Assembly: GCA_965649765.1 (NCBI GenBank)
Contig: OZ287752.1
Coordinates: 18,972,001-19,036,000, forward strand
Source: Bispira polyomma
Lineage: Eukaryota
DNA length: 64,000 bases
Direction: 5' to 3'
Of this stretch, positions 11,726-64,000 are shown one piece after another. The notes under the pieces are model-generated. The model made no database searches, was not told the origin of the DNA, and saw only the letters and a list, made by a program, of their open reading frames with translations. Position 1 is the first letter of the stretch; each line of letters starts with the position of its first letter. Position numbers and translations under genes: made by a program.

Positions 11726-11734
11726 TCATTACCA

Positions 11735-11935: not shown

Positions 11936-12079
11936 GATTAGAGATATATTAATCGTGTCAAATATATTGTTACCATGTGGTGAATTTAATTGTTTTTGAT
12001 AGTAACTTGTATTTATGATATGTTTACTTCATGATTATTATTGATAGCTTACTTTCTGTTAGTAGCTTCATTGTGGGGC

Positions 12080-12325: not shown

Positions 12326-12624
12326 TTTACGTTTTTATTACTAGCCTTTCCGTGGCTATTTTTTTAAACAACTTGTGTTTATGTTTTGTTACACAAACTG
12401 GCCCAATCAGCCCTCCAGTTATCGGTATGTACATGTTTAATGACTTTGTGACACACAGTTCTGTCTTTACAGGTGTCCTCATATTCACACAATACGTGTC
12501 TACAAATAAGTGTCTACTAACATTTTGGCACTACATTTTTGCAGTACACTATTCATTTCTGGACTCAATATGAGAGCGACTTCAGCCATGCAGGTCATAC
12601 ATAAGTGTAGATACATTTCCCCTC

Positions 12625-12792
12625 AGTAGTCAAAAATGGTTGATGATATAATTTGATTAGTGCCAGACAGAGACCTGTAAGGAGTTTGATAAGTTTGGAA
12701 ACTAGATGCTGTTTGGGATGTATTTATTTCTATCTAATGCCTCTATGTACAACTATACAATTAAAATTTTAGTTAAAATTTTAAAATGCCAA
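12625..12792 (-). repeat. YR-1 terminal repeat B2 with AATAAA
   Basis: Matches 13467-13634; tttatt on the + strand at ~12723. Confidence 0.92.
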
Positions 12793-13246
12793 TATGGCTA
12801 CATAATAAATGACAAAACAAAAGTGTGTAAATGCCAATATGGCTACATAATAAATACAAACAAGAGTATGTTATGCGAAAATGTAAAGGGACAAAAAAGG
12901 TCCCGAAAGAACAACATAAAAGTTGAACACAAGAATACCCAGGATGACTGAGAGTGTTAAAATTGTTCATAAAAGCTGAAGGAAATTGTATATGTGAGCT
13001 TGTGTGTATATGAATCTTAAGTTCCTCACTATCTCTGACCCGACTCAACCTCCAAGGCTAGAACCCCGGTCCTGCGGCACCTAATCGCCTAGCAGTGAAG
13101 GTTCCCAGCTGCAGAGCTTTAATCCCCGGTAGCCCACACCGAGGGGTAGTTGCGAGCTGAGAACCAGCACCACACGGGCCGAGGTTCGAACCCAGGTGGA
13201 GTCACGTGGGCAAGTGAGATTATAATTTTTGGGTGGAGGGTTTGGG

Positions 13247-13634
13247 AAAAAGACGTGTTGCTTACTTAACTTGCAACTTAATAATGCCTTTCTATGATAA
13301 AAGGGCGGCAAGGAGTTTACTCTGAAGGAAGGTGATTGGTTGCCTGGTTTAAATGACCTAAAGTCTGATTGGGATAGCTAGGTAAACACTTCTTAAGGGG
13401 GGTTTTACAGTAAAGTATTCAATTTTTGCTACTGACTTGCCATGCTATACTAGCAGTGACATCAACAGTAGTCAAAAATGGTTGATGATATAATTTGATT
13501 AGTGCCAGACAGAGACCTGTAAGGAGTTTGATAAGTTTGGAAACTAGATGCTGTTTGGGATGTATTTATTTCTATCTAATGCCTCTATGTACAACTATAC
13601 AATTAAAATTTTAGTTAAAATTTTAAAATGCCAA
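13247..13634 (-). repeat. YR-1 internal B1-A2 junction repeats
   Basis: B1 13467-13634 directly abuts A2 13247-13466; junction reads gactACTGTtgatg in element sense. Confidence 0.92.
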
Positions 13635-13641
13635 AGCCAAA

Positions 13642-14618
13642 TTAGAAAGTAGAGGAGACAATGGAGGAAAAAGTGGAGGGGATGATAGAGGCTGCGTGAG
13701 AGGTGGATTGTAAATATGACCAGACAGCATCGGATTTCCAGCACCCATGTTTTTGTATATCTTGAAGTTTGATATTAGAATTAAAGGCTAGAGAGGCTCC
13801 AGAGCGACGGAAGCAGTGAAATGAATGACCTATGTGTGGAATGTCAAGGTGAGTGAGGATGTTCTTGAGTGTAAGTCTAAGCTTGGTGTCTGATAAGCAG
13901 TTTCCTCTATCACACGGGTTGGCCAGTAATGGGGCCATGGAGTGTAAAGGGTATTTGTTAAATAAAGCTGTGGCAGCTCTGACAGGACATAGCCAGGGGT
14001 TTGATAAGGAAGGTAGTTGAATGATGTCTGGATTTGCCCTACTTTGGTTAGTTTTACTCCATTTAAGGATAAGGTGAATACCTGGTGGGGCGAATACTAT
14101 GTCTGCCCTTGTGAGGTGTCTTGTAGGGTCAAAAAGTGAACCGGAGGTAGTAGTAAGATTGGAAATTCTGAGGAACCCAAAGAAGGCGAAAAGAAAAGCT
14201 GTCCTGTATAGCTCAGGGAAATGAAGTAAATCACAGGCTTGTGAAATTTTTTCCAGTTGTAGTAAGTCAAACACTCCCTTTATTCTGGGGGTGTATTTAG
14301 AGGTGAGTTCTAAGGACCTAGTGTACAAGGTCAGTCTGGGGTCATAAAGACCTGTGTGTAGTATATTCAATAGTTTGGCATTGTGTCTTAGAGCTGATAT
14401 GTAATTTGCAATCACTTTGTGGGATTTCCCTGTTTGAGTCAGGAACTCTAGAAATGCCAAAATGGTGTTGAAACTGAAGGTATGATGTAGATCATAATAT
14501 ACAGTGAAGGCTAAAAAGAGTCTGAATTGGCTGTTGTATTGTCTCTGAGTTCTAGGTCTGTGGCTCTGTCGTAATCTTGTGAGGGCACCTTGGATCAGTG
14601 AATTTGAGTCAGAAGTGC
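13642..14618 (-). CDS. YR-1 tyrosine recombinase (frame open from the splice acceptor at 14619)
   Basis: Catalytic set R (FLRISNL), K (WSKT), HxxR (HCFRR), HGCW, Y (WSYL); the reading frame extends upstream of the called TTG start without an ATG. Confidence 0.93.
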
Positions 14619-14624
14619 CTGAAA

Positions 14625-17204
14625 TTATAAATAAGTATCTAATGTAAAAAAGTTAAGAGGAATGTTATGCATGGTGAAGCTGTGAGTGACGGTTGCCCTT
14701 ATGTGTTCACCCCCCGTGTCGAGTTCATACCATCGCGAAAGTGCGTCAGCAATGATATTTTCCTTACCTGGGATGTGACTAATGACAAGGTCAATGTTTT
14801 CTGCTGCACAAATTTGCCAAATATTCCTTAAACATAGTCCTAAGTAAGTGTCTTTGGTTTTTGATGACTGCACTACAGACACCACGGCCATGTTATCTGA
14901 CTGTACCTTAACTTTTTTGTTTTTCCATCTGTGACCCCATAGTTTGAGAGCAATTAAAATGCTCACCATTTCAAAATGTACGATTGATAAAGTATGAGAC
15001 ATGAAGAGAGGAAGGGGAGTTTTAAACACGTTTTTGTTCCATATACCTCCAATGCCAGATAAACAAGCGTCAACTTGTAGTAGGGCGTCGTGTGGCTTGT
15101 TTATGTAGTTATAAGTAGTAGTACCGTTAAACTGTAAAAGAAATGTTACAAACCAGGCGAGGTCTTGGTGGAATTCCATATTCAAGATGACTGTGTTACT
15201 GCTAGTGGATTGGCGTAATAATGCTAGCATCCGATTCATAAATATACGAGAGGGTTTAATACACCGGTGAATGTAGAGGAGCTTTCCTAATAGTGACTGG
15301 TATTTTTGTTTACGTACTTTATTTAGGTATTTAAACCCAAGACAGGTATCATAAATGGAAATCAATTTATCCTCGTCAATACTGAGAGTTTCGTTGGTGA
15401 TATCAATGGTAATGCCCATACAAGTGACACGTTTACTGGGGGGGACTAGCTTTTTTTCGTTTATGGGGAGGCCTAGATCTGTGAGAATTTCTTGCAAAGT
15501 ATTGTAAGCTAAGGTAGCCCTATCTTCAGATTCTATGAGTATGAAGTCATCGATGTAGTTGTATACTGTGAAGCCTTTAAGTTTCATAATATAAATCACG
15601 CAATCTGAGGCCATCATAAAGACTGCTGTGCCATGAGTTAAGCCAAAAGTCAAGGTTAAATCTATGTAATAATTATTTTTCCAAAAATATCCGAGTTTAA
15701 GGCAATCATAGGGGTCAATTCTGATATTTCGAAATGCGTGAGAAATGTCCACTTTTGCTAAGGTGGCCTTAGGTCCAATAGCCAAGATTTGAGAAGTTAT
15801 TTGATCAATAGATGGGAGTTTTAGGTTGAAATCTATGTGGTCATACTTTGTTTTTACAGTACAATCATTCACGGATTGGCCTGCAGGGTGAGATAAATCT
15901 AAGACTAACCTACGTTGGTCAACGTCCTTGGGAACTGTCAATAAGGGAGAACAGTGTAAATCTGGATGTAAGTTATCGTTAATGGGGCCAATTATGGTAC
16001 CTCTGTGGACCTCAGTAATGAAGTATTTGTCTATTGCCTGAGGGAAAGCTTTGGCTGAGTAATGATTTTTGACATTTGTGACGTGTAGTCGGTCCCTGTC
16101 GTATAAGGAAATGGGGAATCCGAATTCTATGTACTGTAAAATGATTTTGTCTGGGTAGTCAACCAAATACTCTTTCCATTTAGCTACGTTGAGGTTGCTC
16201 TTAAGTGGTATACGTGCTGATTTATAGTTGGGGACCTTAGTGGTTTTAATGATGTTGGCAACTTCTAGCAGTTTGCCATACGAGTCAATGTTGACCTCTT
16301 GTCTAACAGGACCCATAAAGGTAAAGTTGTTATATCTGTGTGGAGTGTAACTAAAAGGTTTGTGTGTGTTGGCTAAAGTGTCCCCCTGTGTGTTGTTGTT
16401 CTTGGGAAGTACATGTGAACATTGTTGTGAAACTGCCTGAGTCATAACGACCTCATGATCTGTACAGTGTGTGTGTGTGACAGTAGTATGAGGGTTGTGA
16501 GTGTGCAAGTTGCGTGATGGCATTACAAGTTCTACAGTAGTTGTTTTTGCTTGTGTGAGTGTCTGTTCATCACGTCTACATAAGCTGTCAATGATGTCAT
16601 TGTAATACAAAGTGCTACCTAATTTAGTACGTGTGTGTGAGAGTTGTTTGTCTAATCTCGGTTTTGTGAGTTTCTTTACTTGGGAGAAGTTCCTGCCTGA
16701 TTCTGAGATGTGCATAGAGCAAGAGTAAATTATGGGCCAAATGTGTTCTAATGACCAATCAGATAGTTGGAATGTCCAGCTATCTTGTACAAAGTTGCAC
16801 ACATAAACGCCCGACAGAGATGTATCTTGGCGACATACTAGGTAACAAAGGTTTAACGTATTACAGCCATGTTGACTGTTACTGAGATATATATCACAAA
16901 GTTTAGAGTCACAATGTAAACTGTTATCAGCTGTATATGTGATAACGTTGTCTATAGTGCCTGGGTAGGCGGTTAAGCTTGCATTAGTATTTTTAACTTG
17001 ATCGTTGTCAACACTTGAAATAATAGAATGATTACAATCTGATGAAGTCTGTGACCTGTTAATCTTACTGTCTACAGAGAATTGTTCGATATTACTGTTG
17101 TCAACACTAACGCTCAAACTGGATATAAAATTAGGGTTCTCATAATCGTCTACCTTATAAATTTGCTTAGAAGTACTATTAATCTCATCATTCTTCAGGC
17201 TCAT
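14625..17204 (-). CDS. YR-1 reverse transcriptase + RNase H
   Basis: KVDISHAFR, LTFGL, YIDDF; RNase H motifs DACLSG, HFEM, SDN, IADALSR. Confidence 0.95.
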   Translation of the reverse strand: MSLKNDEINSTSKQIYKVDDYENPNFISSLSVSVDNSNIEQFSVDSKINRSQTSSDCNHSIISSVDNDQVKNTNASLTAYPGTIDNVITYTADNSLHCDSKLCDIYLSNSQHGCNTLNLCYLVCRQDTSLSGVYVCNFVQDSWTFQLSDWSLEHIWPIIYSCSMHISESGRNFSQVKKLTKPRLDKQLSHTRTKLGSTLYYNDIIDSLCRRDEQTLTQAKTTTVELVMPSRNLHTHNPHTTVTHTHCTDHEVVMTQAVSQQCSHVLPKNNNTQGDTLANTHKPFSYTPHRYNNFTFMGPVRQEVNIDSYGKLLEVANIIKTTKVPNYKSARIPLKSNLNVAKWKEYLVDYPDKIILQYIEFGFPISLYDRDRLHVTNVKNHYSAKAFPQAIDKYFITEVHRGTIIGPINDNLHPDLHCSPLLTVPKDVDQRRLVLDLSHPAGQSVNDCTVKTKYDHIDFNLKLPSIDQITSQILAIGPKATLAKVDISHAFRNIRIDPYDCLKLGYFWKNNYYIDLTLTFGLTHGTAVFMMASDCVIYIMKLKGFTVYNYIDDFILIESEDRATLAYNTLQEILTDLGLPINEKKLVPPSKRVTCMGITIDITNETLSIDEDKLISIYDTCLGFKYLNKVRKQKYQSLLGKLLYIHRCIKPSRIFMNRMLALLRQSTSSNTVILNMEFHQDLAWFVTFLLQFNGTTTYNYINKPHDALLQVDACLSGIGGIWNKNVFKTPLPLFMSHTLSIVHFEMVSILIALKLWGHRWKNKKVKVQSDNMAVVSVVQSSKTKDTYLGLCLRNIWQICAAENIDLVISHIPGKENIIADALSRWYELDTGGEHIRATVTHSFTMHNIPLNFFTLDTYL

Positions 17205-17267
17205 ACGATAAACATGAGGTACATTGAAGTCACAACTGGTGGTGGTGGCTGTAGGCAGTTGGTGGTC

Positions 17268-18605
17268 CTATTGTGTGTTCGATGTAGGGGTTGGACGCCC
17301 ATGCAGTTTAAAACATTTTGTCTCCGGATGAGGGTTGGATTTTCTACTAACCCGGAAACAGTTGGCACAAATGTGCTTAAAAAGAACGTTATTCCCCTCG
17401 TGGTCTTTCTGATGTTGGCATTGGCCTTTCTGAAAGTGCCTGCAGGGGATTTCTTGTTTAGTCGATGCAAAGAGAGTGGTGTTTGTAGACGTGTTGTTGG
17501 AGACGAGGGCTTGGGAGTACGAGAGCCTGTTTAGGGTCCACTTCGTTTCATTGAGCCAGCTGAGGCGACCTTCCTCGATGTCGTGCATGTTGCACGCGTA
17601 AGCCCCACGAGCTATCTGCCAAGATATGTTTGAGGCGTCTCTGAGAGTATCTGCCAACTGAGTGAGCATTGCTCTGGAGATAGATTGATTCTGGACCTCT
17701 AAAATGTTTTGAATTTGTCCGGCAGCGAATTGTGGGATGGTAAGGTCGTCGAAAGAAACACGTTTTTTATTTATACCTGAGAAGCAAGCCTCATTGGGCC
17801 AGCGTTTCATCGGATCAGAGACACACACATCTGAGACATTGTAACGACCAGACTTTTTCTTGGTGGCAAGCTTACCTTGTAAGCCTTCGTCCGCAGCCCA
17901 GGCCTCATAACGTGCTAAGCGGAGAGATACTTAATTTTGTATTAAGGAGGACTGCTTGAGGACATCTGGTGTTGGTAAGATGGCGTCCTGTAGCGCTCGC
18001 TGTGTGTTGTCAGTGTTAGCAACTCTCTGTGGTTGCATCTGAGCTGCTATGTGAGATTGAGCGTGAGGCTGAGGTAGAGGGTGAGATGTGTAGGTGAGCG
18101 ATGAAAGATCGCTGTGTGCTTCATAGCCTGGTAAACTAAGTGATGCTGGGTGTACTGGTGTCGTGTGAGGTGGGTCTTGAAGAGTTTGCATGTTGTTTCC
18201 TGGGTTGAGACGCCGAGGAGTGACTGTAGGACGAGCTGACGGGGTCGTTACGGACGGCCTTAGCATGGGTAACTGAAGAACCGGAGTCTCGGATTGCTTA
18301 GCTTTAAGGTCAGAAACGTCCTCTTGTAACTTTGACACAGTAGTAAGTAATGTTTGCATCATGGCTTGCTGCCTGCTATGTATGTCACGGTAAAAATTTT
18401 CGGAACTTACTTTATCAGAGCAGTTACTGATGGAGTCGCTGTCAAGGTTATTTTCTGCTCCCAAATCTTGGTCTGGTAAGGGTTCTTCTTCAGGAGATAC
18501 CATGACTCTATTGCATCTAGTCCCAACCGGGCGAGTATGCGAAATGTCACATCTCGAGCACATAGCTACATTCACGGCGGGTTGTCTTTTTTTACCTCTC
18601 CCCAT
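17268..18605 (-). CDS. YR-1 Gag-like ORF1 (N-terminal CxxCxxxHxRPVGxxC finger, coiled coil, C-terminal CCCH and CxxC..H..C fingers); nonsense codon at 17931-17933
   Basis: ORFs 17931-18605 and 17268-17828 are in one frame, separated by a single TAA; homologous to YR-2 Gag. Confidence 0.85.
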
Positions 18606-18778: not shown

Positions 18779-18998
18779 AAAAAGACGTGTTGCTTACTTA
18801 ACTTGCAACTTAATAATGCCTTTCTATGATAAAAGGGCGGCAAGGAGTTTACTCTGAAGGAAGGTGATTGGTTGCCTGGTTTAAATGACCTAAAGTCTGA
18901 TTGGGATAGCTAGGTAAACACTTCTTAAGGGGGGTTTTACAGTAAAGTATTCAATTTTTGCTACTGACTTGCCATGCTATACTAGCAGTGACATCAAC
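18779..18998 (-). repeat. YR-1 split direct repeat A1 (probable promoter: two CCAAT boxes, one GC box)
   Basis: Matches 13247-13466; contains gattgg twice and gggcgg. Confidence 0.9.
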
Positions 18999-21349: not shown

Positions 21350-22172
21350 AGGAGTTTGGGGATAGAGGAAGCAAAGGTAAGGGGGACTGTGGAGGCTGCC
21401 TGGGAAGTTTTCTGGAGGTATGTCCAAACAGCAAAAGATCTCCACAGGCCATGAGACATTATATTCTGTAATGAGACATTATTGTTGAAAGCAAATATTG
21501 CTCCAGAGCACCTAAAAGTGTGGAAGGTATGTGATTTCTGTGGAATGTTAGCGTGTGCAAGTACAGAAGCTAGAGCAGAGCGAATATATGTGTCTACTAT
21601 GGGTTCATGTGGCAGTGCCCCAGAAACGAATAAAGGATGAGTGTCTGGTAAGCTCCTTTAAGTTGATAAGTCTTGTTATGCTTTTACTGGACATAATTCT
21701 TTGTTTTCTAATAAAGGAATTTGTATGATGTGGGAAAATGAGAGTAAGAAGATGGCTCTATACAATATGGGATCATTTAGGGCATTGCAAGCCCTTGATA
21801 TAAGTAGTAAGTGTTGTATTTCGAAGATGCCTTTTGGTAGAGGTTTAAATTGGGAGTTGTAGGCTAAGCTGCGAACAAACATAGCTACAGTATTGTTCTC
21901 AAAAATGGTGATATCCAAATGATATCTTCTTGTCATGAATTTTATGCCAGCCAAGTAATTGTTAATTGCCCCTGTAGATGTACCATTCTGTACTAAATAT
22001 TCCATAAATGCTACCACCACATTAGTAGTGATAGTAGGCACCCCAGCAAAGCAGGTGAATGCTAAAAATGTTCTAAATTGTTGATTATATGCTGACATAG
22101 TCTTTGGTCGTAGTGCTGTGTTAATTCTTTCCCATGCTGAGCCCACAAGTTCCTGTGTAACCTGTGTAGAGC
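21350..22172 (-). pseudogene. YR-3 tyrosine recombinase (deleted and decayed)
   Basis: ORF 21676-22146 plus downstream HTFHTFRCSGA..HGLW..WTYL. Confidence 0.85.
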
Positions 22173-24260: not shown

Positions 24261-24335
24261 TACAGAGGTGTGAATAGCTTAAATTATAGTAATGGGACCC
24301 TCTGGTAAAACATCACATCTGATGTAGTCATAATT

Positions 24336-40200: not shown

Positions 40201-43200
40201 TTTAGGAAACTCCATTTGAGACACCTCACAAGGTCAGATGTATTATTTGAATCTCCAGGTATCCACTCAATATTAAAGTAAACAAAGACAAATCAAAATA
40301 GGATAAATCCAGATATAATTTAGTAACAATTGGGTATGTCCTGTCAGCACTGTCAGATCTCTAGGATCCATGTATCCTCTTTTGGCTAATCCTTTTGACA
40401 ACGGTAACTGTGAAGAAACAGCAAACTAAGGTCCACCCTAAAGCTCATACTCACACACCTTAATATACCAAGGGAATGTTAATCTTTTAAATGTTTTGGG
40501 CGCTCTGGCGTCTCTTTTGCTTTCAATTCTAACATGAAATTACAGCACATGCAAAAACATGGGTGCTGGAAGTCAGATGCCATTTGGTCTTACCTTCAAG
40601 CTACATTCCATGCAGCTTCCAACATTTCTACTACTTTTGCCTCTATTGTTTCTTCCAAATTCTAGTTTGGCTTTAGCATTTTAAACATTTTAGTATAGTT
40701 GTACATAGATGCTAAAGATATATAAATAAATATTCCCAAGCTGCATCTGATTTGTAGTTTTACATTTTCAACTTTTTTACCCTGTATCTTGCAGTATAGG
40801 CATATCTAAACATACCAACCACTTCATGTCATGCATTTGTTGCCCAAGGGCCATTATACTTTACTTTTAGTCTACCGTACTTACATCACACATAGCTATA
40901 ATTGGTTGTTTTACCATATTGCTAACTTTTGTGTGTATTATACTTAATTTATACTTGGCTATAATTCGTTGTTTAACCATATTGCTATTTGATAGGATTA
41001 TGATACTCTTAATCTTGTTATATTTATCCCTTTAGTATTATGAAGCCTAATGGCATTTTAAAATTTTTAGTATTTATATAAAATATTCTGTATAGTTGTA
41101 CGTAGAGGCTTAAGATATTTAAAAAAATATTCCCAAACTGCATCTGACTTATCACCTTTAAAAGTCATATACTTTAACATCAATTCACACAGGTCAACAA
41201 CTTTTGACCTCAACTTTTTCATTCACCATTTTAAACAGCTGAAAGAAAAACAAGAAACTAAACCCTTCCTTGCATTAGTTGGTAAAAATCCCACTTTGAT
41301 ATGATGCTTGCCTGAATGAATTTATGATGATTTCAAGAAAGTTTGTACTAGCTGGATATGCATCAATGATGTTTCAAAGAAACTAGACCTACTTGCTATA
41401 TCGAGAGGTCATTTATTTATTTTACATGTTCATATCTCATGAACTTCAACAAATATATACCATTATAGTGTCTAACTTACAGTATTATTTACTTAATGTC
41501 AGTTATTTTATTAATTCAATAGTTGTCAATATAAGTTTGTATTTTTCTAAATTGTAAAACATTCTATTTGACTGATATGAGATATAAAAACACATTTATA
41601 ACTCTATGTATATCTACTTACATTTAACAGTGTAATACTTAGTGTCTGAGTCTGAAGAGTAGCTGACTTGGTCTGTGTCTGAAGAAGTAGCTCTACAGTA
41701 AAACAGAAGCCTGTTGACTTCCCTCTCCATTGTAATTGTCTGTACCAAACTGTTCCTCATAGACTCCCCGACTTGTACTGTGTCTGTACCGTCTACTCTG
41801 TACAAACTGATCGCAGGTTCAGGGTTTCCGTTTGCTGTACATGTCAACTCTCTTGTCTCTCCTTCTTCTGGGTCTGGGCTGGAGTTTGCATTGATTGTTA
41901 CTGTATCTGATAAATCTAAAAGTTTTAAGCAATACAACTATTTACTTTTTGTGGTAGGAAAGGCAACACAATAGATTGAATAAAATTCCAACTATATCAT
42001 TAAGCAATAAAGTGAATCAAAGAATACTCTGGTTTGCTGCTGCACTGGAAGAAAACATCTCATTACAATATATGCCTAAAAAACACTACAGTCCTTCAGT
42101 CAGTGATATGGTTCACATATCCATAAACTTCAGAGTATCTAATTCATGTTTGCTGTATAATGTTAAAAAATCAACTTACACAATACACTAATCCTCAGCT
42201 TTTCAGATTCAACATCATATGTCCACCCTGAGTAGAGATAATTATCATCAGCTCTACAGTAAAACTGGGCACCATTATCATCTTTGTCAACAGTGAGTTG
42301 ATACTCTAGTGTTTTGGCAGTCACCTGTTCAAGATGTGTAGCTACTCCCTGTCTGTACAACCTCAGTCTACCTGCAGGATTACTGTCTACTTCACATGTC
42401 AAGGTTAACAGGGTATTCTCATTTACTGTTGAGGATAGAGAGGCTGTAGGTTTACTCACGGATGAGGGTATATCTGAAATTTAAATAGTACTTACCTGAA
42501 TAAGGCACAAGATTACCTTGAAAGCCATTAAAAACCTATTAGCAAAAAATATATAAAAGTTTGTCTGATGAGAAAAATATCTTTGGCTAAACTGATACAA
42601 ACATACACTCTCAAAATATGGTAATATAAACAGTTCATTGTAAGTCATTTACCCACAAATTATTGCTGTCAATTTGTAACTGTAATTACACCAGTGAGAC
42701 CCGGACTGATAATGAACAACAATATTTAACAGAATACAAATAAAGTCAATAGTGATACACTGTCAGCGGTAGTTTTATGAAGGGGCTACTGCAGTTGATG
42801 TTGTCTGCTAGACAGAAGTGAGTTTAAAGGGTTGGCCTGATGGATAAAAATGTAACTATCAGAATATGTTGGACATTTAGTTTGTAGCCAATTCTTTGCT
42901 GATTTCAGTCACTGTTTTACATACCGGACACTTAGGCAAGCATTGTATCATATTCGTCTACATTTATGTGGTATTAAAAGTGCTAATTATTTATTTTTTC
43001 CTGTGAAGACTATTATTTATTTGACAATAATCATTTTAAATGCTAAATTCTTGTCATGGGGTGATATAAGTGCAGTCATGCCTTTTTCCTACTCCAGAAA
43101 AGATAAACAGATACACCTCAGAAGAATGACGTAAGTATAGGGAAATTTTAAACAATATGTATACCACCTACCTGGTTTTTGGATGTGGTGACACCCATCC

Positions 43201-46200
43201 AGCTGAGTGTTGCAGGAAATTGAATAATACAATATCAATTGGTCTTGTTGTCAGTGTCATGAACAGATCGAATGCAGTAGTGTTGTAATTAAAATAGCTG
43301 AACTCATGGAATGGCATATTTCACAAAAAAACTCCTTTTCCAAGTTTACTAATTACTCATTCGTGCATGACCATTCAGCTACCCAATGCTCACATGATTC
43401 ACTCAGTACCCATTAGACAATTAAAATTACACACATTTGGAGTGTAGCTGTAAATTTAATCAGTTATTATAATATTGAAACAGGTGAAATACCTGAGTTT
43501 GGTTAGACATATTTTGATCTTGGTAAATGCATTTCTAAATTTAGTTTAATCTGGTTTTTTTTGTGGCCAATCAGTAAATTTCATTTGAACTGTGGCTTCC
43601 ATTAATCACAAATATTAAAAATGACAAAGCTTTGATCTTGGAACACAGGCCAAGTAAATTTAATTATTTTGTCAGTGTTGAGTGTAAACAAAATACTCGG
43701 TTATGATATTACAAGTGAACACTGGACTAGTATATGGAATAATGACTGCAATGAAATATTATATATTGCCTTTGTGGCTATGCCCAACATAATCAGTTAA
43801 TAATTTGTTAAAAGGGTAAATTGGAATGGAGATGCAGATTTGGGAGCCTCATAACATTGAGTGGTACCATTTATTGTCGCCAGTCTCTTTTGCTTATGAT
43901 CCTAGTATATTATTTATCACATTTTAACGAAGAAAGAGATAAGATGTGAGATGTAGCAAATAATAGAGGTTTATTTTTACCAGATAAAACGGTGACTTGA
44001 GGCAGCAGTCTCAGTCCAGTCACAACTTTCATCATATAGAGCCAGAGAAAAGCTACTAAGAACTTTACCTGTTTATTCTGTATCATTTAAAAAAATAACA
44101 AACAAACAACACCATTGGTCTAATTATATAAACTTACATGTGATTGGTTAGGGTGAAAATTTGTCACAAGGCTTTGGGGGCTTCTTTGCCGTTACAAAGA
44201 AAAAGTTGAACTAACAACATTGGAAAGCTTACATTGTTACACCCACTACAATCCTGTGTATATATAATTATCTTTTATATATTCACCTGTAGTACTGCAG
44301 TTTCAGATTGTGTGTGGTTGAGGAAATGGTGAGAGCAACATTATGGAGCTTGGTCACCACTGGTGATTTGCAAGTGGAGTTGTGAACCTCTGACTATCAT
44401 TCAAGCAAGGATTATGATGCATGAGCACGGAACTATAAAGCTGCCTAGTAATATTATTGCTAAATGTATGTTATAATAATGTGCATGTCTTACTAATCTA
44501 ACCTAACAGTTCACCATATCTTTAATTCAACGCTAATGGACTGTATTGCTCAGTTATTTAAAGGTACATACTATGAGATTGATAGAGATGTAGGTTATTT
44601 ACAGCCAGATGTTTTAAAGTGAGATCTCCAACATGCAACTGTAGGTAAATTCGCTCAATGTAATGACATGCTTTACATAATTTTAGTCATAGATTTAAAT
44701 GTTTTTAAAATGTAACCTTTATCTATATACATATTTACATCTTTACATAGATTATTCACTAATGTTTTTACATGTTCTAAAGCTGTTGTATTTTTATACT
44801 ACACTAATACATATTTACCTTCTCTTAAAAATACATATATATTTGTTATTGCAATAGAAAAGACAATATTGTACTTATATATATACGTATATTGTCATCA
44901 AGTGAAACCACAAACTACTCCTATAATGCATAAAGCATGTGTGTTAAGTATAGGTATAAGGTAACCTTAAAGCTGCAGGCTGTTAATATTATTCATTATT
45001 ATAACTCAATCAAAACTAACAAATGTGTAATATTTTCATAAGTTAACTCAAAACGTAAAATTTTAATTGAAGCTTGGTTGACTTAAGCTAACACTTAAAC
45101 TGGTTGTGAAAATAAATGTAGAACTTAGTGTAGTAAATAAATGTAGATATATATCTTCATTCTTGTGCATCACTCACATCTCTTGTCATGAACTGGACTG
45201 CATTCAAAATTGGCGAATAAAAGATACAGTTCCTCGGAGTAGTGCCTGAGGAAACTCAATTAACCGAACAAGTCATAGAAAGACAATACTGCGGTTAAAT
45301 ATATTTATTTCATATTTACAGCTACTATTACTAAGATATTTATGTACAGTTCTTTGACATGATATGCACTTTGAGTGAGCATAAGGTCCCCTTAAGTCAA
45401 CTGAGTTTAGGACTTTAGGTTAAACCAGAATGAGTTTAAGTCACCCTAACTAAGAAAGAAGTTGACTTTAGAAATTTAGATTTAAGTTGAAACTTAGATA
45501 TGACTTTGAAGATTAACAAATTAAAGTTTGACTTAGGTTTTAAGTGGAACTTTAATTACATGAGTACAATATGTACTTTAATAATACAGGGGGACCTTAT
45601 GCCCACAGTTAATTCATTTAGTTTACAGGTAATTAATATGCTACTTGCACTGTTAAACTGACTAGATCTTACAGTGATGCCACCAAACCCCAAAATTTTA
45701 GTAGGTATTTTGTAGAATAGTTTTGAAGGAATCGGCAACTTGAGTACCAGCATTGGCAGAATCCGAAATGTAACGCCAGACGCAATCGGACGTCCAGGTG
45801 CCGTGCCTTTGGATGTCCTGAATGGTGACATTATTGTTAAAGGCAAAGGTGGCACCTGAACGCCTGAAAGCGTGAAAGGTCAAGCCAGAGTACTGCGGGC
45901 CCAGCATTAGTAAGACATTCTTAAGATGCCTCCGAACCCTAGTATCAGTAAGGGGCAACCAAATGGCATTCTGCTTAAATTGAAACAAGGGCAGATCTTT
46001 CCCTTTAGGAGAAATAGCCAAACAGTTTTTTAAAGCTTGCACCGGACATAAGATGGAATTGGTTAAAGCTGGTATGGTGAGCAAGCGAACGGCATTATTG
46101 TTTTGAAGGGTTTTAGACCATTTAATAATGAGGACAGCGTACCCTGGCTTGAAAAGAACATCAGCCCTTGCAAGCTGCTTAAGAGGAGAGTAAGCAGCAA

Positions 46201-49200
46201 CCGAATGAGCACAGAGGTTAGACAGCCTCAGAAAGGAAAAGAAACTGGTAAGATAGACTGCTTTAAAAATTTGACCCATGTAAGTACTGTTGCACTTTAT
46301 AATAAGAGACCTTAACAACTGAACATCGAAAATTGACTTAAGTTTTACTTGCAACGGTCTATGCATCCCCAAAGCTTTATTATAATAGGTAATTCTTTTA
46401 TCAGAAAAAACATCTACGGATATATGGAAGAGGACACACTTAGCCTTAATGGCAGAAAGATGATTAAGAACTTGACTAGCCGACACACCATTAAACGTTA
46501 AAAACTCTAAATAAGCTAAGAGATATAACACAGTCACCTTTTGAGGAGGCCAAGACATAAAGGCTCCAACCGCCAAGAACAGCCTGAACATTCTGTTGTA
46601 GGCTCTGTTAGTGGCAGGGGTGAAGGCAAGTACAAGTCTGTCACAAGCTTTCTGCATCAAGGAGATGGCCACAGGTTGTATATCTAGAAAACATGACTAA
46701 CATGTGCTATATAAGTGAGTTAACTTTTAATAAACTGCGGCAAGCAGGCAGCCACTGGACAGGCCCAGCTAACCTAAATAACGACAAATGGTCGGCTTCA
46801 GTTTCCTTCCATCTTGACAGCAAATCTGCAATTTTATTTTCTTTACCCAAAATATGTACGACAACAATATCAATACTAAACTTGCTAGCTAACATGTATA
46901 TGTTCCTAGAATACGTGGCTAATTCGGGATCTCTGGTGCGCCCTGTCTGTAAGACACTTACAACTGCCTGATTATCACATCTGACCAATATTCTACGACC
47001 TTTCCATTTATGAACCCACAATTTTAGAGCTACCAAGATGTTAAGCATCTCCAAAGAAGCAATATTGACCTCAGTCATTTCTGGAGGAATGTTAATTTGG
47101 TACACTTGTTTCTCAAAAATACCCCCCATTCCAGTAAGGCAGGCATCCAATTCAATCTCACCAGTTATGGGCTTAGGCATGAAAAAAGAGACTCCATTGA
47201 AGTGTTCTGCAAAAGTAGTAAACCAATTCAAGTCACGCCTGAATTCAGGGGTGATGGCGATATACTTTCTGGTGTAATTATCTCGTAACAGCTCCAGCAT
47301 CCTATTCAAAAAGACCCGAGCATACTTTACACATTTAGAGATATATAATAACAAGCCAAGTAAAGACTGGAGCTCTCTCTTAGTGCAGAATTTTTTGGAT
47401 TTCCATTCGTGACACTTATCTTTAATTTGACTTAATTTCTCACCCGGGATGGAAGTAGTACCTAGAATGGTATCCACTACTATGCCCAGGCAGACGACCT
47501 GCGTGCTGGGAGGAACCAATTTTTTCTGACTTACTGTCAACCCCAACTCTTGTAGCAGTTCTTGCAATCTGAGGAAAGTTTTTTGAATTTTGCTGGGAAC
47601 AGAAATAGCCAAGAAATCGTCGATGTAGTTGTGGACATTATGATTTTCAGAGTGCATTATGAATCGCACGGCATCCGAAATTCTCTGAAAAATCGTGCTA
47701 CCATTACGATATCCGAACGGCAGAGATCTGTCCACATAATAGGACTTCCACTTTAGACCTAGGAGGTCAACGTCGCCAGGGTCAATGGGTACGTGGCGGA
47801 ACGCCCTACTTATATCGACCTTGAATATCTCACATCCTCTCCCCAATTTTACCACCTCACTAGTGAGATTATCAATGGACGGATAAGACAGTAGAAATTC
47901 AACGCCCAAGTAAGAGGAAGGAGAAGCTCCCGCATTAACCGACCCCCCTTGAGGCCAACTCAAGTCTACAATTACTCTCCGGTTAATTGAGTTCGGTTTG
48001 TGTCTCGTCATAAGGGGAGAACAGTGCAGGCCCGGAAGAGGAGGTTTGTCAAATGGCCCTAACATGGCGCCGAACTCACATTCTTCTTTCATATAAGCCT
48101 CTACATGCTGTGGATATTCCTCAGCCGACTTATGGTTACTCTCACTGGATTCCAATTTTACTGAATGATCGACGTCCAGGGGAAATCCATATTTTATGAG
48201 GAGAGGCAATTGCCAATCCCAGTAATTTTTGAGGTATTTTTTCCAACTCTCGGGTCTTAATTGAGAGGGAACAGGGATTTGCAACCCTTCATAATTATGC
48301 CTGCCGTCAGCCCGAATTAAGTCATGCATTTGCAAAATGGAAAGTTCGGGCCCTCCCTCACCCTGATCTGCCATCTCACAGCCCAGAGCAGAGAGAGGAG
48401 TGAATCCATATGCATGTTGGGTTTGGGCTTGCCATTTTCTGTAAGTAGGATTTGAGGCAGCCTTAGCTAACATGCCTTTCTTATTTACTTTCTGTTTCAA
48501 GGCACAAGAGTACTTATCGGGACATTCGAGACTTTCCGGGCTATCTTCGGAAGCAGTTTTACTCCTGCCCTCGCCTCGGTCAACGGGCTTGTCACTAGGG
48601 CCAGAAAGGAATCGAACGGGCTCGTCCACATTTTCACCGTCATCGACCGACAGCGACACTAAAGCTGTATACCTGTTAGCAAGAGGGAGGACAGCCACAC
48701 CCCCATTGACCCGCCTCTCTTCGCCCCCATTCAACCTCGAGCACTTGACCTCCTTTGTTATCACCTTGCCTTGTTTCGCACCCCGGCCTGGCTTCACAAT
48801 GGAAGTCCATTGTCCCACAGAGGTACCAAGGGGCCTCAACAATGTGTCACTTTTGCCACGTAATATGTCTACCTTACTCTTGTCAACCCTTGCCTGTTTT
48901 ACCGGCACCTCATTAGCACTTCTATTTACACACCCATACTTTTGAACTGGGCCATTCTTTTGCAACGCCTGGCTATAACTCAAGTCTGGCCTAGTGCCCT
49001 TCACATATTTACACGTTTTTCGCCACACAGACCTCTCAAATAATTGTGCACTCTTAAATTCAGTATTATAAACAAACCTACATTTGTGCTTCCCACTTTT
49101 AGCCACTGCATTAACGCAGTGGCCCCTCAGTTTTTTGCCCCTTTCTTATGACATTCACTAGTCTGGTGGCTACCCTCACATGTCTCGCAATGATGTTTAT

Positions 49201-52200
49201 ATAACTGACCTCCAGTATTGTGAGAGCTGGGAAAACGACAATTTCCTTCCTGATAAAAGCGACAAGACATTGCACCCTTACGACGTACAGACCTACTGCT
49301 ACTCGAGTTACTTGGCCGTCCATTCGCCCCAGAGGAATTTCTACTGTTCGACACATGGCGCTGAGCATGGGCTCTTCGGATTCGATCCATCTTATCTACC
49401 TCTAGCCACCCCAACTTATCCATCTCCATACTTGTCTATACGACTGCATGGCAGGCCTTAGCTGACTCCCAAGAAAAATCCTGGGCATCCTCCATAAGAC
49501 CCCCCATGTAATCCAGCATGGCATTCTTCACTTCGATCGACTTCTCCTCGTGGGCAATCCGAGCGAAACCACACACCCATTGCAACACGGTTAACTCATC
49601 GTAGCTAGGCCGAGACTTAGAACTACCCGTGAGCACATAGTTTTGAGGCCAGGCGGTGACCTTTCTTACCAACACCTCATTCGCCCCACTACGCTGGGAC
49701 TTCAGTTTACCTTGCGAGGTGGTCTCATTCAACGTCTTGAGATCTTTCAATCTCTGCTCCACTTGGAGCTGTATTAGGGCATTCTGGTTTAAAAAATCTA
49801 TGCCAGGAATTATACTGTCGGACGTAGCGATAGATGGGCTCTTACCTACGCCAGCAGAGCAACTAGCAGGCCTGTCAACACTAGAACTAATCAAACTACT
49901 ACTTGCCTGAACGGGGACCTGATGACTGGGCTGACTACTGGTGAGGTTCGTCGCCAATGCGGCCTCATTCCTCTGAACCCGCTGGTCCATTTTTACCATT
50001 AACTCGTTCATCGAGTGCAGTTGGAGTAATATCGCGTTCGTAACTGCATCGCCAGACTCACCGTTTGCGGGTTCAGTGTCAGAGGCAGCATCGATCTCCT
50101 CCCCAGAGGCAGAGTCAACGGTTGCAATAACGCAATTTCGCCCTACAGGACGCTCATGTTTGGTTAAACATCGACTACACTCATAGACAGGCATAACTAA
50201 AAGGTGTTTCCACTAAAATACTGTAAAATATAAAACATATACACCACCAACAAAATGGCACCCAAACAAATTTTAAACTAGTTGTTGCTCTGCTGACGAA
50301 CGATAAAGGCGGGAGATTTTGAAAAGGAGAGCCTTATATAGTCGTACACCATCCCATAATAGTAGACCAGGCTGGTACCCCAGAACTGAGGCCACGAACG
50401 CTGAGGGCGTTCGCTTACACAATGAGTGGGAAGTGTTGTGAAAGTATCTGTATTGTACGGAAAAACTTTCGTTTGTCCATCACATTACAATAACAATTTG
50501 GAGTAACTGAAAGCCTTAGTTTACTGTTCATCATTTTTGTTTGTAAAATGCCCAAAATTTAACAACTCACACCTTTTTGAAGGTATTAGTGAGGCAATAT
50601 ATTCACCAATAATGACAAAATGTGTTTGATGTGCAATTTATAACATGTCATTTGTAAACGTAATCATATATGTCTATTGAATTGTAATTATGTTTGGATA
50701 TATGTACAAGTTTGTTTTCAAGTATGTGGTGAAAGTTATCAATATCAAAAATCACTAATTTTGTTACAGTTAAGTTATAATTAGAAAAACCCAAACGGGG
50801 GAGGAGTGTGTATTGCTAACAGTATTTATTAGTTAAGATTTACCTGCATTGTCATTACTATATTAAATAGTACATTGATACATTTACACTGCTTTGTTCT
50901 TTATTGTCCTGACTGTTTTAGATAGAACTTGTTGTCAAGTTTTGAATACAGATGACTTTAAAAATATTTATTTCGCCTCAGATAGGAAAGCAGTGTACAT
51001 TAATAAAAATACTAATAGACAAGTAATACAGGTTAATGGCATACTTACAGTACACATCCAGGGTTTTAGTGTTTGATGTTTTCACTATTTCTATTGCTCC
51101 TTCACCCCAGGTCAGTTGACACTGTACTCCTTGGCCTTGCTGACCACGGTTAAAGCTCAGTGTCTGTGTATAAGTCACTGTATAGGTCACCCCATTACTC
51201 TCTTCACTCTCTGTCTCATCACCTCCACTGTTGTACTCATTCCCTACTTGTACTATAAAATCGGTTTCCCCTTTACCTGGATAGATGGAGGACACTCTAC
51301 ACTGGATAGATTTGGTTACACCCTCAATTACAATACCTATAGTAGTAAGGCTCACAGAATCTGGAGCATCTGGAAACAGAAAAACAATGGTATCATTCTT
51401 GTCTCAATATTTGCAAGCAAATAGAACACTACATCATTGGGACAACTTAACAAAAAAAGTCTACAGTCGCCAGTTACAGTCACAGTTTCTTGGAGCCAAA
51501 TTGATGGCTGGCAGTATCTGACAGAACTACTCACAGCATAGTTACAGTGAGGTAAAAGCAATTGACCTTTTAAGTTTTATTTTGCTTCTGAATTAAAAAG
51601 ATAGTGTCGTAATAATTTATGTGTGAAATATAATTGTGTATATATAAAAGGATTGATCTGCTTACTTACCATCAAGATATAAATTCTATTTTGATAGAGT
51701 TTGATAGAATTAAAACATAAGTATTACCCCAGACAATCAAATAAAATCTGTGCAACCTTTGTGAATCTATTAGCAATGACATTAACTTTTAACTATGATA
51801 AGTTAAATAAGTGTGTTATCTCAGTAGCCAATGATGAGTAACATATAATAAATATTTCTTCATTTTTTTTCTCTATTCTGATCAAAAAGTATAAATACGT
51901 GAGATTGGGAGAACGAAAAAGACTATGGCAATAGACGGCTCCGAATGACGAAAGTCAACAAAGAAAAGTTCTGCAAAAGGGAAAGGTAGTAAGGTATCAA
52001 ACATTCCTATAGATGATAGCATTGTTACCGACCTGAGAGGCACATTCAAACGAATTTTACAATACCGACGTTCTGACTAGTAACCCAAAGCGAACAAGGA
52101 CTATACATACATCAATGATACAACAAGTACTGCTGTCACTTGGGAATGTCTTCTCATTGCCTCGGGAGGTCGTTCGTACGGCCTGGGCATTAAAGATGAC

Positions 52201-55200
52201 GAAAATAGAGTGCATCAACATTAGCCATAGTAAATTTAAAGGGTAGTAGTTCGAGTTCTACTTACAACCTACAGGTGGCAAAGGTGATTTCTAAATTATA
52301 TAATTTGGGGCAAATGTTCTGATAAGATAGACCACAAACAGACCACTGTGCAACTGTCTTTCAGGCCCTAATTCTAATCACTAAGACATTGACCAACCAG
52401 TTCTGGTATATTGAACGTTGATTAATACTTGTGCTAAGGTCAATAAGAGGTGCATCGACAATGGGAATAATGAAGTATTTAATACTCATAAGGGAATAGG
52501 TAAAACAAATAATATTGCTTATCACTGGAATAAAACTCTTGTGAGTATACTTGCAGCCCCTGATAATGATAATAGTATGTATAGGTCTCGAATAATACCA
52601 CCAATGATAAGATTAGGAACCATTTTGAAAAGAGTAATACAAATAATGGCCTGATTGGCTTTGATGGTTAAATGAAGATCCACATGGGGTCAAGTTGATT
52701 TTTGTAATTTTCATTACCAATTGGATATATCATATTCCTCATATAAAACTTGAGTTCAGTGTGAACAAATACATCTTTATGGCTTCTATATTCTACGGGA
52801 AGGAGAATTTGGGTACGATAGCCAATATTATAAATGTGATAATCCACCAGCACTTTTGCTACATGGATTACACTCACCGACTTCTGATCAACAGTAAATC
52901 AAGCTATTGGAAGCAATTGATAAACAAGTAGCCAAATATTCTTGGCATGATCATCAAAAATATATTAGCTGTAAAATTTTATTTTAATGTTTACTGTACA
53001 CAATATGTTAAAAATATAAATCATTAATTAATTATTAGTAGAGATCGGGGACAGTAAACTGTCCACAGTCAGGACAGACCTACAGGGATCAAAGCAGTTA
53101 AATCCTGCAAGAAAGATAAAATAATTTCATAATTTCATTCATATTCACAACACCATGGGTGCTACTACCGTATATAGGGACATCAATTTTTGTTCTCAAC
53201 AAAACCAGATTTCTTGGCTTTATCAGAAACTGAATTTTAATTTCATGGACCCGACAAAAATCCCATACTTAATACTTCTGTACAACAAATGATAGAAATA
53301 GCAGATATAATTAGGGACACAGGTTGTCCTAATTATAAGGGGCAAGATTTCCCCTTATATCATATTCAGACAATAAGGCTTGGGATTAAATCCTACCAAA
53401 TTACCTAGACAAAATTGCTTTTGCAATATATGAATTTCGGACTTCCTCTTTTGCACCTACACTTAAGGGATTAAGGAAGCAATCAACCAAAATTCTGCTA
53501 TTCAGCATAAGTCCGCAACTAGCCAGTACATTGACAAAGAAAAACAATGTGGGGCAATGTGGGGTTAACAAAACCGAAACATAACACAATGTTTTTATAT
53601 AGTGCCTTACAACCAAATGCTGTTCAAAGTGCTTCACAATGAACTGAAGAAATTTTATTCAGCAAAGTAGTCTTTAAAAAAATATGTTTTTAGTTTTGAT
53701 TTAAAAAATGTTAGGCCCAAGTTTGAATGTAAACAGTGAACTATTTCACTGTTCACCCGACCTAAAGATAACTTAAAACATCGCATTATTCTTAATTTCT
53801 CTCAAGGCAGTTTAAAAGGGTGGATTTTACACTCAAATTTCCCACTCCTCGTCCATCACTTAAATAGTAAATGTTATTGATCTTTCGTTTAAGGTCTTCG
53901 CTAATTGTTGGAAAAGCATGAATGTGTATATCTTTTTCTCTTTTTTTTGAACATGTATATCTTATATATATATCCCAAAACCTAGTGTTGCACATATTTT
54001 ATTATTTCCCTGAACACACATGGAGTGTACGAAAGAAGAACATCACAAAAATATGTGTTAATTAGTAGGTCAAAGGTTCAATTATATTTTAAAATGAAAC
54101 AAAATAAGAAATCAAAATATTAAACCAGATGACACATCCTACGAAACAACCACTCCTAACTCCCGAAAGTTAAGCCCAAATTTTAAACGGAAATGGTAGA
54201 AAGTGCTGTCTAGATGATCAATGTCTTCGGCATAGTACCATCTCGATATCGTAATATATGGCGAATAATAAAAAAAAAAACCAAACAGTTTTATGTCTTA
54301 CGACCATTACTAGGTTCTGTACGTAACACCGACATAAAGTGTAAATTCCCCAAAAATCAAAGAAATACAGATTCCTGAGCAACAGATCAGACTTTGTCTG
54401 AAACCTTATCAGTTCGAGACCCCATTGAGTTTAAACATGTCCTCCCAATTTAGTGAAAATTGATTATGGAATAAAGATATATGTTGTAAAAGTTTCACTT
54501 TGTAATTAGCTACAGACAGCTGGAATCACTAAAACGCATACCAGAAACTATACTTGGGCATTTAATAACAGCCTCATGTAAATTACATCGGGGGATTATC
54601 TTGTACTAACGATACCCTATTGTGCAGAACTTAAGGCAAATTTAATTATATTTTGGTGCGTCGACTGATTGTCACCAGTTATAGGTTCTGGGATTAACTA
54701 ATGATGTCAACTGCTAACCGACAACATAGGGGTTGAAATGGTTAATCGAAATGTATACTCTCCTCAATACCCAAGAGGGTCATGTTGTCATGTAAATAAT
54801 GTACTTACTTGAATGTGAAAAGTACTAATAAAAACATAAACAATCCTGCACTTTATAATATTAACCAAATTCAGTGTGCCTCAAAACGAGTGCTATAAAT
54901 GGCTCTAGTGGTAAATTGCATGTGTGGATCTATACTGTACACACTTTCCCAAAGACAGACTTTATATGTTTTCATTGGCAGCCTTAAATACAGGATATGG
55001 GTACATTTAATGTTTGGTTCTAATACTCTGTTATGTTTGTGTTTGAAGACATTTATAAACTGTGTTTGGTATGCAACATTTCTCCTCTTGACTTTATTTG
55101 ACCTAAGTTTTTTCAACTTTAAGAATTTGTTACTTTAAGGTAGCCTTTATACACCAAATTTCCTTCTTATTGACCAACCATAAACTATCCGTTTGAGTCA

Positions 55201-62195: not shown

Positions 62196-64000
62196 CTAAT
62201 GAATGACATTATATGTCATATGCTGAAAATGATATTGGTGGGTAGCTTTGCAAATTGACAAATAAGTATTCAAGAAGAATCTTACAATTATACCAAAAAA
62301 TGTGTTGATATGACATACTATAGCAGACAGTTTTGAGCTATGCTTGGGTGACCAAATAGAATCCTTGCCTTTAGGTCAGTGCATTCACCAGGGGCTCTGG
62401 GTTCCTCAGGTTGTGTCATTTCATACAGAGCATTTCCAGTATTCCCCAAAACATTTTCGTTTGTAGCTGCAGGATGATCATTGTCAGACTGAAATGCAAT
62501 TTGCGAACTATAATGTAAAAAATTAGGTATAAACCATCAAGTTATTTCGATTTTTTCATACAGTTCACAGGTGTAGTTTATTTGTTTAGCACTCAAAAAT
62601 GACGACTACTTTTAACTACTCAAGTGCAATAACTAGCCTATAATTATAATCAACATATCTGTAGTAGTAAACCCTGAACTTCAAAAGTTATTAATGTCTC
62701 CAAAAGTGATCTGGTCTGCTACCAGAAATAAGCCAAAAACAATACAGGACCACCCATTCTAGTGCTCATTCAAGCCATTATGTATCTCCATGTAACTGAT
62801 ACAGAGTACACAGCTGCTATGGTCGATAATAATTTTGTCTACTAAGGCACAGTATCAAACAAAATTGGTAACATAATTAAACATTTGGAAGGTATGAAAT
62901 TGGAGTATGTGAATGAATACAACACACTACAGTCCCCACAGCCTCTATATAGGCTATCAGTATTTATTTCACTGGGATGTTTTGATAGGCAGGCAGGATC
63001 TGGACAGTCTTCCCAGCAACGGATACCAAATTTTGTTCAAACTAGTTTTCAGAAACCGTGAGGCCAATGAGGTTCCTATTTGGCACACATGTTTGTTAAA
63101 AGGGTGTCGATTTCTATGGTGTGATTTTACCCGAATAATGTAGGGTTTCGGCATCCTCGATGTAAGTAATATATTGTTATTTATATGATAACTGCAAGTC
63201 TATATCTTATTCAATTTTGTAGAATTATAAGATTAATACTATGCTACAGAATAGTGCTTACATTTGTAGACTTTTTACTGTGTATCCTATGTCTGCCACT
63301 ATTTTACAATATAAATGCAGCCACAGCGACAATAATCAGCAATCCAGCTATAATTGAAATTACTACGAGTCAAGCAATGAATGCAATATGTTTATCATCA
63401 GTTTCGTCTATTGCAATAAAAAAAATTATTTCAATTCATAAATAAGTCTAATATAATATTAATTCAATTGTATTTACAATATGTAACCACAAAATATAAA
63501 AGGTAAATATACCTCTTTTGTCAATCACAGTAAACATCTTCACTACAACCTTGTCTTCATCTTGAAAGGCCATTATAAGGTAAATATATTCTAGATAACC
63601 TTCACTTAGAGCCAAAGAATAGTGGTTTATTGATGTAACATTCAAAATTGATGTGCTGTCTTGTTCCTCATTGTTACACATAAATATGCCAACATAACTA
63701 TATATTCCTTCTATAGAAGCCCACTGAAATACCATCCTTTAGTAATGGTCCAGCTAGAAATACAAAGAAAAACATATATCTTCATCTTTGAATTGTACAA
63801 AATGTACAAAATGTGGAACTTGTTATTTTTTACATAGAGGCAATAATGTAACTTATGCCTGATGTAGATATCAAAATCTCAGGCTGAGGAAGACTTTCAC
63901 CCTACTAATTTGTGGCTTGAAGCTTAAAGTTATACTTGGTTTCTGGTTGTAAGTCTGTGTCACTTTGTAGATAATTCACTTATCCCAGAAGAATACATCT
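62196..64000 (-). pseudogene. Paralog 3 of the Ig-FN3-TM receptor (3' part; continues beyond the window), probable pseudogene
   Basis: Close copy of paralog 2: FN3 exon ~63860-64000 with indels, exon ~63512-63752, TM exon 63262-63407 with TGA and TAA stops, tail exons 62369-62488 and 62196-62222 (HMTYNVIH*); 3' flank homologous to 27500-28250. Confidence 0.88.

Follow-up and report, generated by a model that had tools for sequence, protein, structure and literature searches.

Conserved splice signals point to a Gag-N/recombinase fusion made from a spliced mRNA in Ngaro-like retrotransposons of Bispira polyomma

How is a recombinase translated when its reading frame offers no start codon? This question is raised by three tyrosine-recombinase (YR) retrotransposons, here called YR-1, YR-2 and YR-3, in a 64,000-nucleotide (nt) stretch of DNA from Bispira polyomma (GenBank assembly GCA_965649765.1, contig OZ287752.1, positions 18,972,001 to 19,036,000), the whole of which is referred to as the window. 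As the preliminary description of this DNA had noted, the recombinase frame of YR-1 is without a usable ATG, its first in-frame methionine being residue 239 of 336. The translation of such ATG-less recombinase open reading frames (ORFs) in YR retrotransposons has so far been left to the guess of a frameshift. Conserved splice signals in the DNA make it very probable that YR in these Ngaro-like elements is instead made from a singly spliced mRNA, as a fusion with the N-terminal part of Gag (Gag-N).

Within the window, two open exons are found in YR-2 only. Its donor, CAAG/GTAAAC (the slash marks the splice point), lies at 49711/49710 and its acceptor, TTTTCTAG/AT, at 46684/46683. The first exon (50194-49711, 484 nt) is stop-free and ends in phase 1, and the second (46683-45698, 986 nt) is open from its third base and holds one terminal stop; the junction is in frame, and the exon lengths bear out the 489 amino acids (aa) previously given for the fusion. 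The gag nonsense codon of this copy (49438-49436) does fall inside the predicted intron. In YR-1 the corresponding sites are CAAG/GTAAGC at 17876/17875 and TAATTTCAG/GC at 14619/14618, again in phase 1, and YR-3 has a phase-1 acceptor, TAATTTCAG/GC, at 22173/22172, with no gag donor found next to its recombinase exon. By phase, the earlier proposal that the exons can be joined in frame holds for both YR-1 and YR-2. Upstream of its donor, the window copy of YR-1 is broken by a nonsense codon (17933-17931); further members of that family are open.

The conservation of both sites was followed through the own genome, which was searched with four divergent YR proteins; 100 matches that differed in open-frame length and in place were taken, splice features playing no part in the choice, and about 6.6 kb was retrieved for each. 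Together with four copies of the window families and seven of eight metagenome loci from other samples (locus L085, which is without a YR start, was left out), the 111 natural copies form 49 families at 80% YR identity or 12 clusters at 60%. A quick tree of YR, used to show spread only, has several deep lineages, with the other-sample loci on branches of their own, and the families that carry the sites are only 30-60% alike.

With counts anchored on a column of a YR profile, a phase-1 YAG was found at the homologous position (offset -77 or -74; -71 and -65 in two other-sample loci) in 103 of the 111 copies, in 48 of the 49 families and at 7/7 other-sample loci, so that the acceptor phase, whose variation between families had been set beforehand as a refuting result, is constant. 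Of the eight copies without it, six contain a small indel that displaces the motif; in another the AG is gone, and the last is rearranged. The acceptor is a phase-1 TTNYAG, 6-334 nt behind the Pol stop, with T at -5 in 48/48 families and at -6 in 46/48, and the same form is used by the host exons in the window. It lies just ahead of helix 1 of a complete Cre-like fold in the predicted structure. Seven residues (S, V, A, P, L, T, I) are found at the codon that ends in the acceptor A, and five (G, D, A, E, V) at the one that follows; with residues varied over kept bases, the constraint on the acceptor therefore acts on the bases. At the level of residues, the expected pair was seen at the exact offset in 16 of the 28 sequences reaching far enough among 120 YR homologues, with several of the others shifted by alignment; since other offsets reach similar rates, this comparison is not taken as support.

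The donor was scored in a zone of 31 nt, 50-80 nt ahead of a conserved WP motif of Gag, which brackets both window sites. A phase-1 G/GTA was present there in 69 of 72 scorable own-genome copies against 42 of 1274 control windows (96% vs 3.3%), seven copies whose zone held stops or frameshifts, and 25 in which no WP could be recognised, having been left out; one of the 69 has the form A/GTAAG. Some member of each of 32/32 families has the donor, which lies just past a conserved helix of Gag, and a phase-1 MAG/GTAA follows the same helix in 3/3 gag genes from other samples. It had been proposed that the donor sits at a conserved QGK peptide. The YR-1 and YR-2 positions are indeed homologous in the Gag alignment, although YR-1 and YR-2 are only 39% identical in Pol and 36% in YR, but the peptide varies across families (Q, T, S, K, A, G or P before the glycine and K, T, N, M or R after it) while the nucleotides are kept, with A on both sides. 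In the second test set in advance, the glycine at the donor is encoded by GGT in 31 of the 31 families that have Gly there, the sites being conditional on the search, in comparison with 96/299 at nine other conserved Gly columns; in one copy a serine (AGT) replaces the glycine and the GT is retained. The earlier claim that the signals are conserved across divergent elements thus holds for donor and acceptor alike. As a separate observation, a TTNYAG stands within the 50 nt that precede the gag ATG in 11 of the 16 own-genome families listed, which may be chance in AT-rich DNA.

These counts bear on the possibility that protein conservation and an AT-rich composition give rise to the motifs as a by-product. 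The genome is indeed AT-rich, and the acceptors have modest scores with a generic splice matrix. Such an origin would not explain residues that vary over fixed bases, an acceptor tract that lies mostly outside Pol, the excess of the donor over control windows, or a TTNYAG that occurs at the acceptor offsets in 46 families and at the best other offset within 1.2 kb in 16, and it is regarded as most improbable.

Donor and acceptor phases match in 17/17 families with both exons scorable, and the fusions predicted for these families are 458-569 aa long (439 for one with a broken YR frame). In the YR-2 family the GT of the donor and the YAG of the acceptor are present in 30 of 30 copies, and the intron measures 3027 nt in all of them.

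An alternative that has been published is ribosomal recoding. In the available text of PMC13003380, from 2026, Poulter and Butler (2015) are quoted for the view that translation of the Ngaro YR probably relies on frameshifting in a -1 overlap. More generally, YR could be reached from Pol by frameshift or stop read-through, giving a Gag-Pol-YR protein. In 37 families the end of Pol is clear; of these, 14 show an overlap in the -1 frame alone and five have YR in frame behind the Pol stop, which would suit this route, and the same elements do recode between gag and pol. The remaining families are four with +1 only, six with closed gaps and eight that are mixed, and three different frame relations occur in all, the relation varying even inside a family. 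In YR-2 and six other families the passage between Pol and YR is closed by stops over 10-306 nt (10 nt in YR-2; 204 and 306 nt in two other-sample elements), and a canonical slippery heptamer was found in the -1 overlap of only 2/19 families. Given this variation in frame relation, and the gaps closed by stops in some families, frameshifting is excluded as the general route to YR; recoding also leaves both conserved splice signals unaccounted for and is considered very improbable. In many families the TAA stop of Pol is part of the acceptor TAATTTCAG itself, the stop standing 6 nt before the exon (14627-14619 in the window).

Recoding signals are visible in these sequences at the gag-pol junction and not ahead of YR. 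Two lineage types of gag-pol recoding, -1 frameshift or stop read-through, are predicted. At the -1 junctions A AAA AAC was found in 35 of 38 copies (17 families; L151-L248), followed by a GC hairpin in the three cases that were folded. In other lineages pol lies in frame behind the gag stop, which is TAG-G in 12 of 16 in-frame copies and TGA in three other-sample elements. Splicing from the gag donor to Pol was rejected, as no conserved acceptor was found for it and recoding signals are present instead: near the gag end and upstream of the RT (reverse transcriptase) motif the best offsets reached 6/40 families, and a codon pair that belongs to the RT motif itself gave 7/9.

Several results weigh against the Gag-N/YR fusion. 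The families share descent, and the counts above measure conservation over divergence, not independent origins. Some donors are weak, such as the GTAAAC of YR-2, which has a stronger donor 135 nt upstream. With the generic splice matrix used unanchored, the homologous acceptor was chosen less often, phase 1 was found in 76/111 copies against 182/555 controls, and the mean score was 3.3 against 2.9, little above the controls. Among the 15 joints listed for reads over 42000-51600, which come from three runs of one study and are DNA by their unbroken host introns, there was no 49711/46683 joint. Although spliced RNA would keep the terminal repeats, intron-less genomic copies were not found for five families with exact two-motif junction patterns, a search without a positive control. 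No Gag-N/YR fusion protein occurred in the best 150 of 619 Gag-N matches, nor among longer proteins searched with the Gag-N profile, and the two matches of the YR profile among longer proteins were both RT-YR frames without a Gag-N fusion; the protein collections searched seem to consist mostly of intron-blind gene calls. A search of viral contigs gave no match, and a protein atlas held no usable match for Gag-N and only unnamed clusters for Gag. Finally, a methionine lies within 12 residues of the acceptor in 14/48 families, YR-2 among them (nine residues past the acceptor, at 46657, inside predicted helix 1).

This last count, together with the acceptor-like sites in several gag leaders and the lack of a junction read, would suit a reading in which both sites are real without being spliced together: the acceptor would be served by a donor in the 5' leader or the host, YR would start from an internal methionine, and the gag donor would serve another acceptor or the control of termination. 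The first methionine after the acceptor is, on the other hand, more than 25 residues away in 32/48 families and more than 60 in seven; a non-coding leader needs no fixed phase 1 at both sites; and a second conserved acceptor was found neither near the gag end nor upstream of the RT motif. Unjoined sites are thus held to be improbable, if somewhat less so than recoding.

The sites of the predicted Gag-N/YR fusion fall at domain borders, the donor always past the last Gag-N helix and ahead of the conserved Gag core, the acceptor ahead of YR helix 1. Exon 1 encodes three parts connected by variable linkers: the CxxCxxxHxxPxxxxC finger, which is invariant, then a coiled coil, then a helix of the form IP..L...Q.V..RL..L. 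In the model of Gag-N these three parts have a predicted local distance difference test (pLDDT) above 90, with no packing between them and a predicted template modelling score of 0.31; a fold search returned generic helices only (Z at most 4.3). Three copies of Gag-N modelled together gave an interface score (ipSAE) of 0.50 against 0.02 for the best control, via residues 48-84, at a pLDDT of 43-44. By calibration, the ipSAE mark was reached by 21/30 solved self-pairs and, among single chains, by 0/23 from microbes and 7/16 from animals; at least 39% of contacts agree between the trimer runs, and coiled coils may reach the mark through what the predictor has memorised. Exon 2 models with a pLDDT of 86 and matches Cre (E 8e-9, template modelling score 0.66), whereas a sequence search of PDB with the YR profile gave no match. 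Like Cre and lambda Int, it is modelled as a whole two-domain fold with the R-K-H-R-H-Y residues; unlike them, to which it is 14-18% identical, it would carry a Gag finger and coiled coil as its N-terminal extension. In lambda Int the N-terminal part is an arm-binding domain. A fusion made from a second YR-2 site (49846/49845), which scores above the main donor, would keep the finger and the coiled coil and lose the last helix.

In the proposed mechanism, full-length RNA would yield Gag and also Gag-Pol, the latter through a -1 frameshift or read-through of the stop, and spliced RNA would join the first 130-240 gag codons in frame to the recombinase exon, giving a fusion of about 460-570 aa. 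Like the splice of an env message, this one would remove the Gag core and all of pol, and it would set the dose of recombinase. The need for a start codon alone would allow a donor near the ATG; the Gag-N module itself is therefore taken to be wanted, and the donor would lie deep in gag because the recombinase needs it. Most simply, YR would use the coiled coil, for which self-association is predicted, to assemble together with Gag and Gag-Pol, the other carriers of the module, and thereby reach the complementary DNA (cDNA) in the particle, a further step to which we give about an even chance; alternatively, Gag-N might serve to oligomerise YR itself or, through the finger, to bind the target, roles that cannot be separated from this one. 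More tentatively, and with the balance slightly against it, these elements may represent a broad animal Ngaro lineage with a retrovirus-like plan (Gag, recoded Gag-Pol and a spliced third gene), in which the finger and coiled coil of a Gag-tagged recombinase would be an address label for the particle and possibly steer target choice. We know of no retroelement for which such delivery of an integrase has been described.

The assignment of the window elements to the Ngaro-like class is set by a structural definition, which they fit as far as can be read from the DNA. The available text of PMC8547959, PMC3783388, PMC9210276 and PMC4157794 gives this definition within the order DIRS, and PMC4157794 adds that structure alone can mislead in classification, as derivatives of Pat1 without a methyltransferase (MT) exist. 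In the elements studied gag, RT/RNase H and YR lie on the same strand in this order, YR has the catalytic R-K-H-R-H-Y motifs, and Pol ends about 35 aa past RNase H. YR-1 has split direct repeats in the order A1-gag-pol-YR-B1A2-spacer-B2, and this layout recurs in two complete YR-2 family copies. A DIRS1-like element needs inverted terminal repeats and an internal complementary region, and was rejected on the absence of inverted repeats from both complete YR-2 copies. A PAT-like element was rejected as well: split direct repeats are present, but the required MT domain has no match, the Dam/MT Pfam search giving none in nine Pol frames (two in one search and seven in another). With the Ngaro superfamily, as the sources describe it, the elements share the A1-gag-pol(RT/RH)-YR-B1A2-B2 repeats, the lack of an MT match and YR as third ORF; they differ in the spacer between A2 and B2, in having no hydrolase ORF and in the conserved splice signals that point to a Gag-N/YR fusion. 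The spacer measures 450-730 nt overall, about 455 nt in YR-1 (window 12793-13246) and about 730 nt in the YR-2 family (L249 6340-7070), where no ORF exceeds 62 aa.

The element class is known, and the spliced expression route is apparently undescribed. Introns have been reported in some fungal YR elements, and an earlier mention of a spliced YR is possible. No account of YR being expressed from spliced RNA in Ngaro or DIRS elements was found in the literature searched, outside which lie Goodwin and Poulter (2004), Poulter and Butler (2015), Repbase reports and supplements. Splicing goes unmentioned in the available text of PMC9210276, PMC8547959, PMC3783388 and PMC3266345, and the available text of PMC13003380, PMC7192593, PMC6681497, PMC4157794, PMC2632668 and PMC9341512 was also covered. 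The present analysis names exact predicted junctions across dozens of families. If the reading is true, the real enzyme is a Gag-N fusion of 50-63 kDa and not the bare ORF, which bears on the biochemistry of Cre-like recombinases, on how YR meets cDNA and on annotation, with more than 10,000 first-look YR candidates in this genome.

Retroviruses and gypsy elements express env, a third ORF, by way of a single splice that links the 5' part of the genome with an acceptor close to where pol ends, and their gag-pol by -1 frameshift or UAG read-through. The elements described here would be analogous in the single splice to a third ORF and in the types of gag-pol recoding; in contrast, it is the integration enzyme that would be spliced, and the first exon would bring 130-240 Gag residues with folded modules, not a few codons. 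Foamy virus makes Pol from its own spliced mRNA, without Gag. It thus resembles the proposed route in making a replication enzyme from a spliced RNA of its own, whereas here RT would stay on Gag-Pol and only the recombinase would be spliced, fused to Gag-N. In the plant Ty1/copia element EVD, according to the available text of PMC5580714, a spliced short gag RNA with early termination yields Gag alone and sets protein stoichiometry; this is likewise a conserved retrotransposon splice that sets stoichiometry, but in the present elements the Gag core and pol would be removed and an enzyme fusion made.

Table 1. Features of the YR elements, in window coordinates; splice sites, exons and recoding signals are predictions.
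Element	Feature	Position	Strand	Remark
YR-2	A1 terminal repeat, ~153 nt	50269..50422	-	matches A1 and A2 of complete family copy
YR-2	Predicted exon 1, 161 codons + 1 nt, from the gag ATG to the donor	49711..50194	-	
YR-2	Exon 1 parts			CxxCxxxHxxPxxxxC finger, residues 6-21; coiled coil, 47-85; helix, 132-160
YR-2	Homologous donor: phase-1 5' splice site, GTAAAC preceded by CAAG	49705..49710	-	GT in 30/30 family copies
YR-2	Second phase-1 donor-like site GTAG/GTAAGA (junction 49846/49845)	49838..49845	-	30/30 family copies
YR-2	gag ORF, 355 codons in open copies, C-terminal CCCH-like finger	49127..50194	-	
YR-2	Predicted -1 gag-pol frameshift signal	49101..49136	-	A AAA AAC (49136-49130), gag stop, downstream hairpin (z -3.2)
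YR-2	pol ORF, RT + RNase H, 812 aa	46707..49145	-	end 10 nt before YR frame opens
YR-2	Predicted 3' splice site (…ATGTTTTCTAG), phase 1, 23 nt past Pol stop	46684..46700	-	YAG in 30/30 copies
YR-2	Predicted exon 2 with, past the junction, 327 codons of a Cre-like tyrosine recombinase	45698..46683	-	
YR-2	Exon 2 catalytic residues			R152, K190, H270, R273, H293, Y304
YR-2	Single B repeat	45220..45692	-	comparison with complete family copies
YR-1	A1 repeat, 220 nt	18779..18998	-	A2 at 13247-13466
YR-1	Predicted exon 1, 730 nt, phase 1	17876..18605	-	donor CAAG/GTAAGC
YR-1	pol, directly following the TAG-G stop of gag in the same frame; read-through predicted	14625..17267	-	
YR-1	Predicted exon 2 (recombinase)	13642..14618	-	acceptor TAATTTCAG/GC, 6 nt past Pol stop
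YR-1	3' end	12624..13634	-	B1 13466-13634, A2 13247-13466, spacer, B2 12624-12792
YR-3	Degraded recombinase exon	21367..22172	-	phase-1 acceptor 22173/22172

The YR-2 copy of the window is a shortened A1-ORFs-B form, without A2, spacer and second B; its end (45220-45692) is one B repeat with the end of B2, as recombination between B1 and B2 would leave. It lies, in sense orientation, within an intron that belongs to a host gene with multiple immunoglobulin domains (51369-51049 and 42473), and sense insertions of this kind bring a phase-1 acceptor into host introns. The upstream host exon ends in phase 1, and the YR acceptor could therefore capture host splicing in frame.

At least 30 near-full copies of the YR-2 family were found at 92-100% identity, and each protein query gave 10,000-14,000 YR candidates in this genome at first look; these numbers, with several sets of near-identical copies, suggest a large and partly recent radiation. 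Three YR matches spaced 5.5 kb apart (G000:C8:57134800-57146700) suggest a tandem array, and at another locus (L083, 1720-1991) a new gag begins about 630 nt past the YR stop. Degraded pieces of YR elements and a fragment of a non-LTR (long terminal repeat) retrotransposon RT, which adjoins YR-3, lie in the window at 33257-40700 (+), 19000-19185 (-), 24309-25130 (+) and 53235-53763 (+); these further pieces include a plus-strand copy with an altered acceptor region, a C-terminal piece of gag and a piece of pol. Lastly, a host gene segment is duplicated in the window, 28300-30200 and 62200-64000 being about 80-87% identical and 33.8 kb apart.

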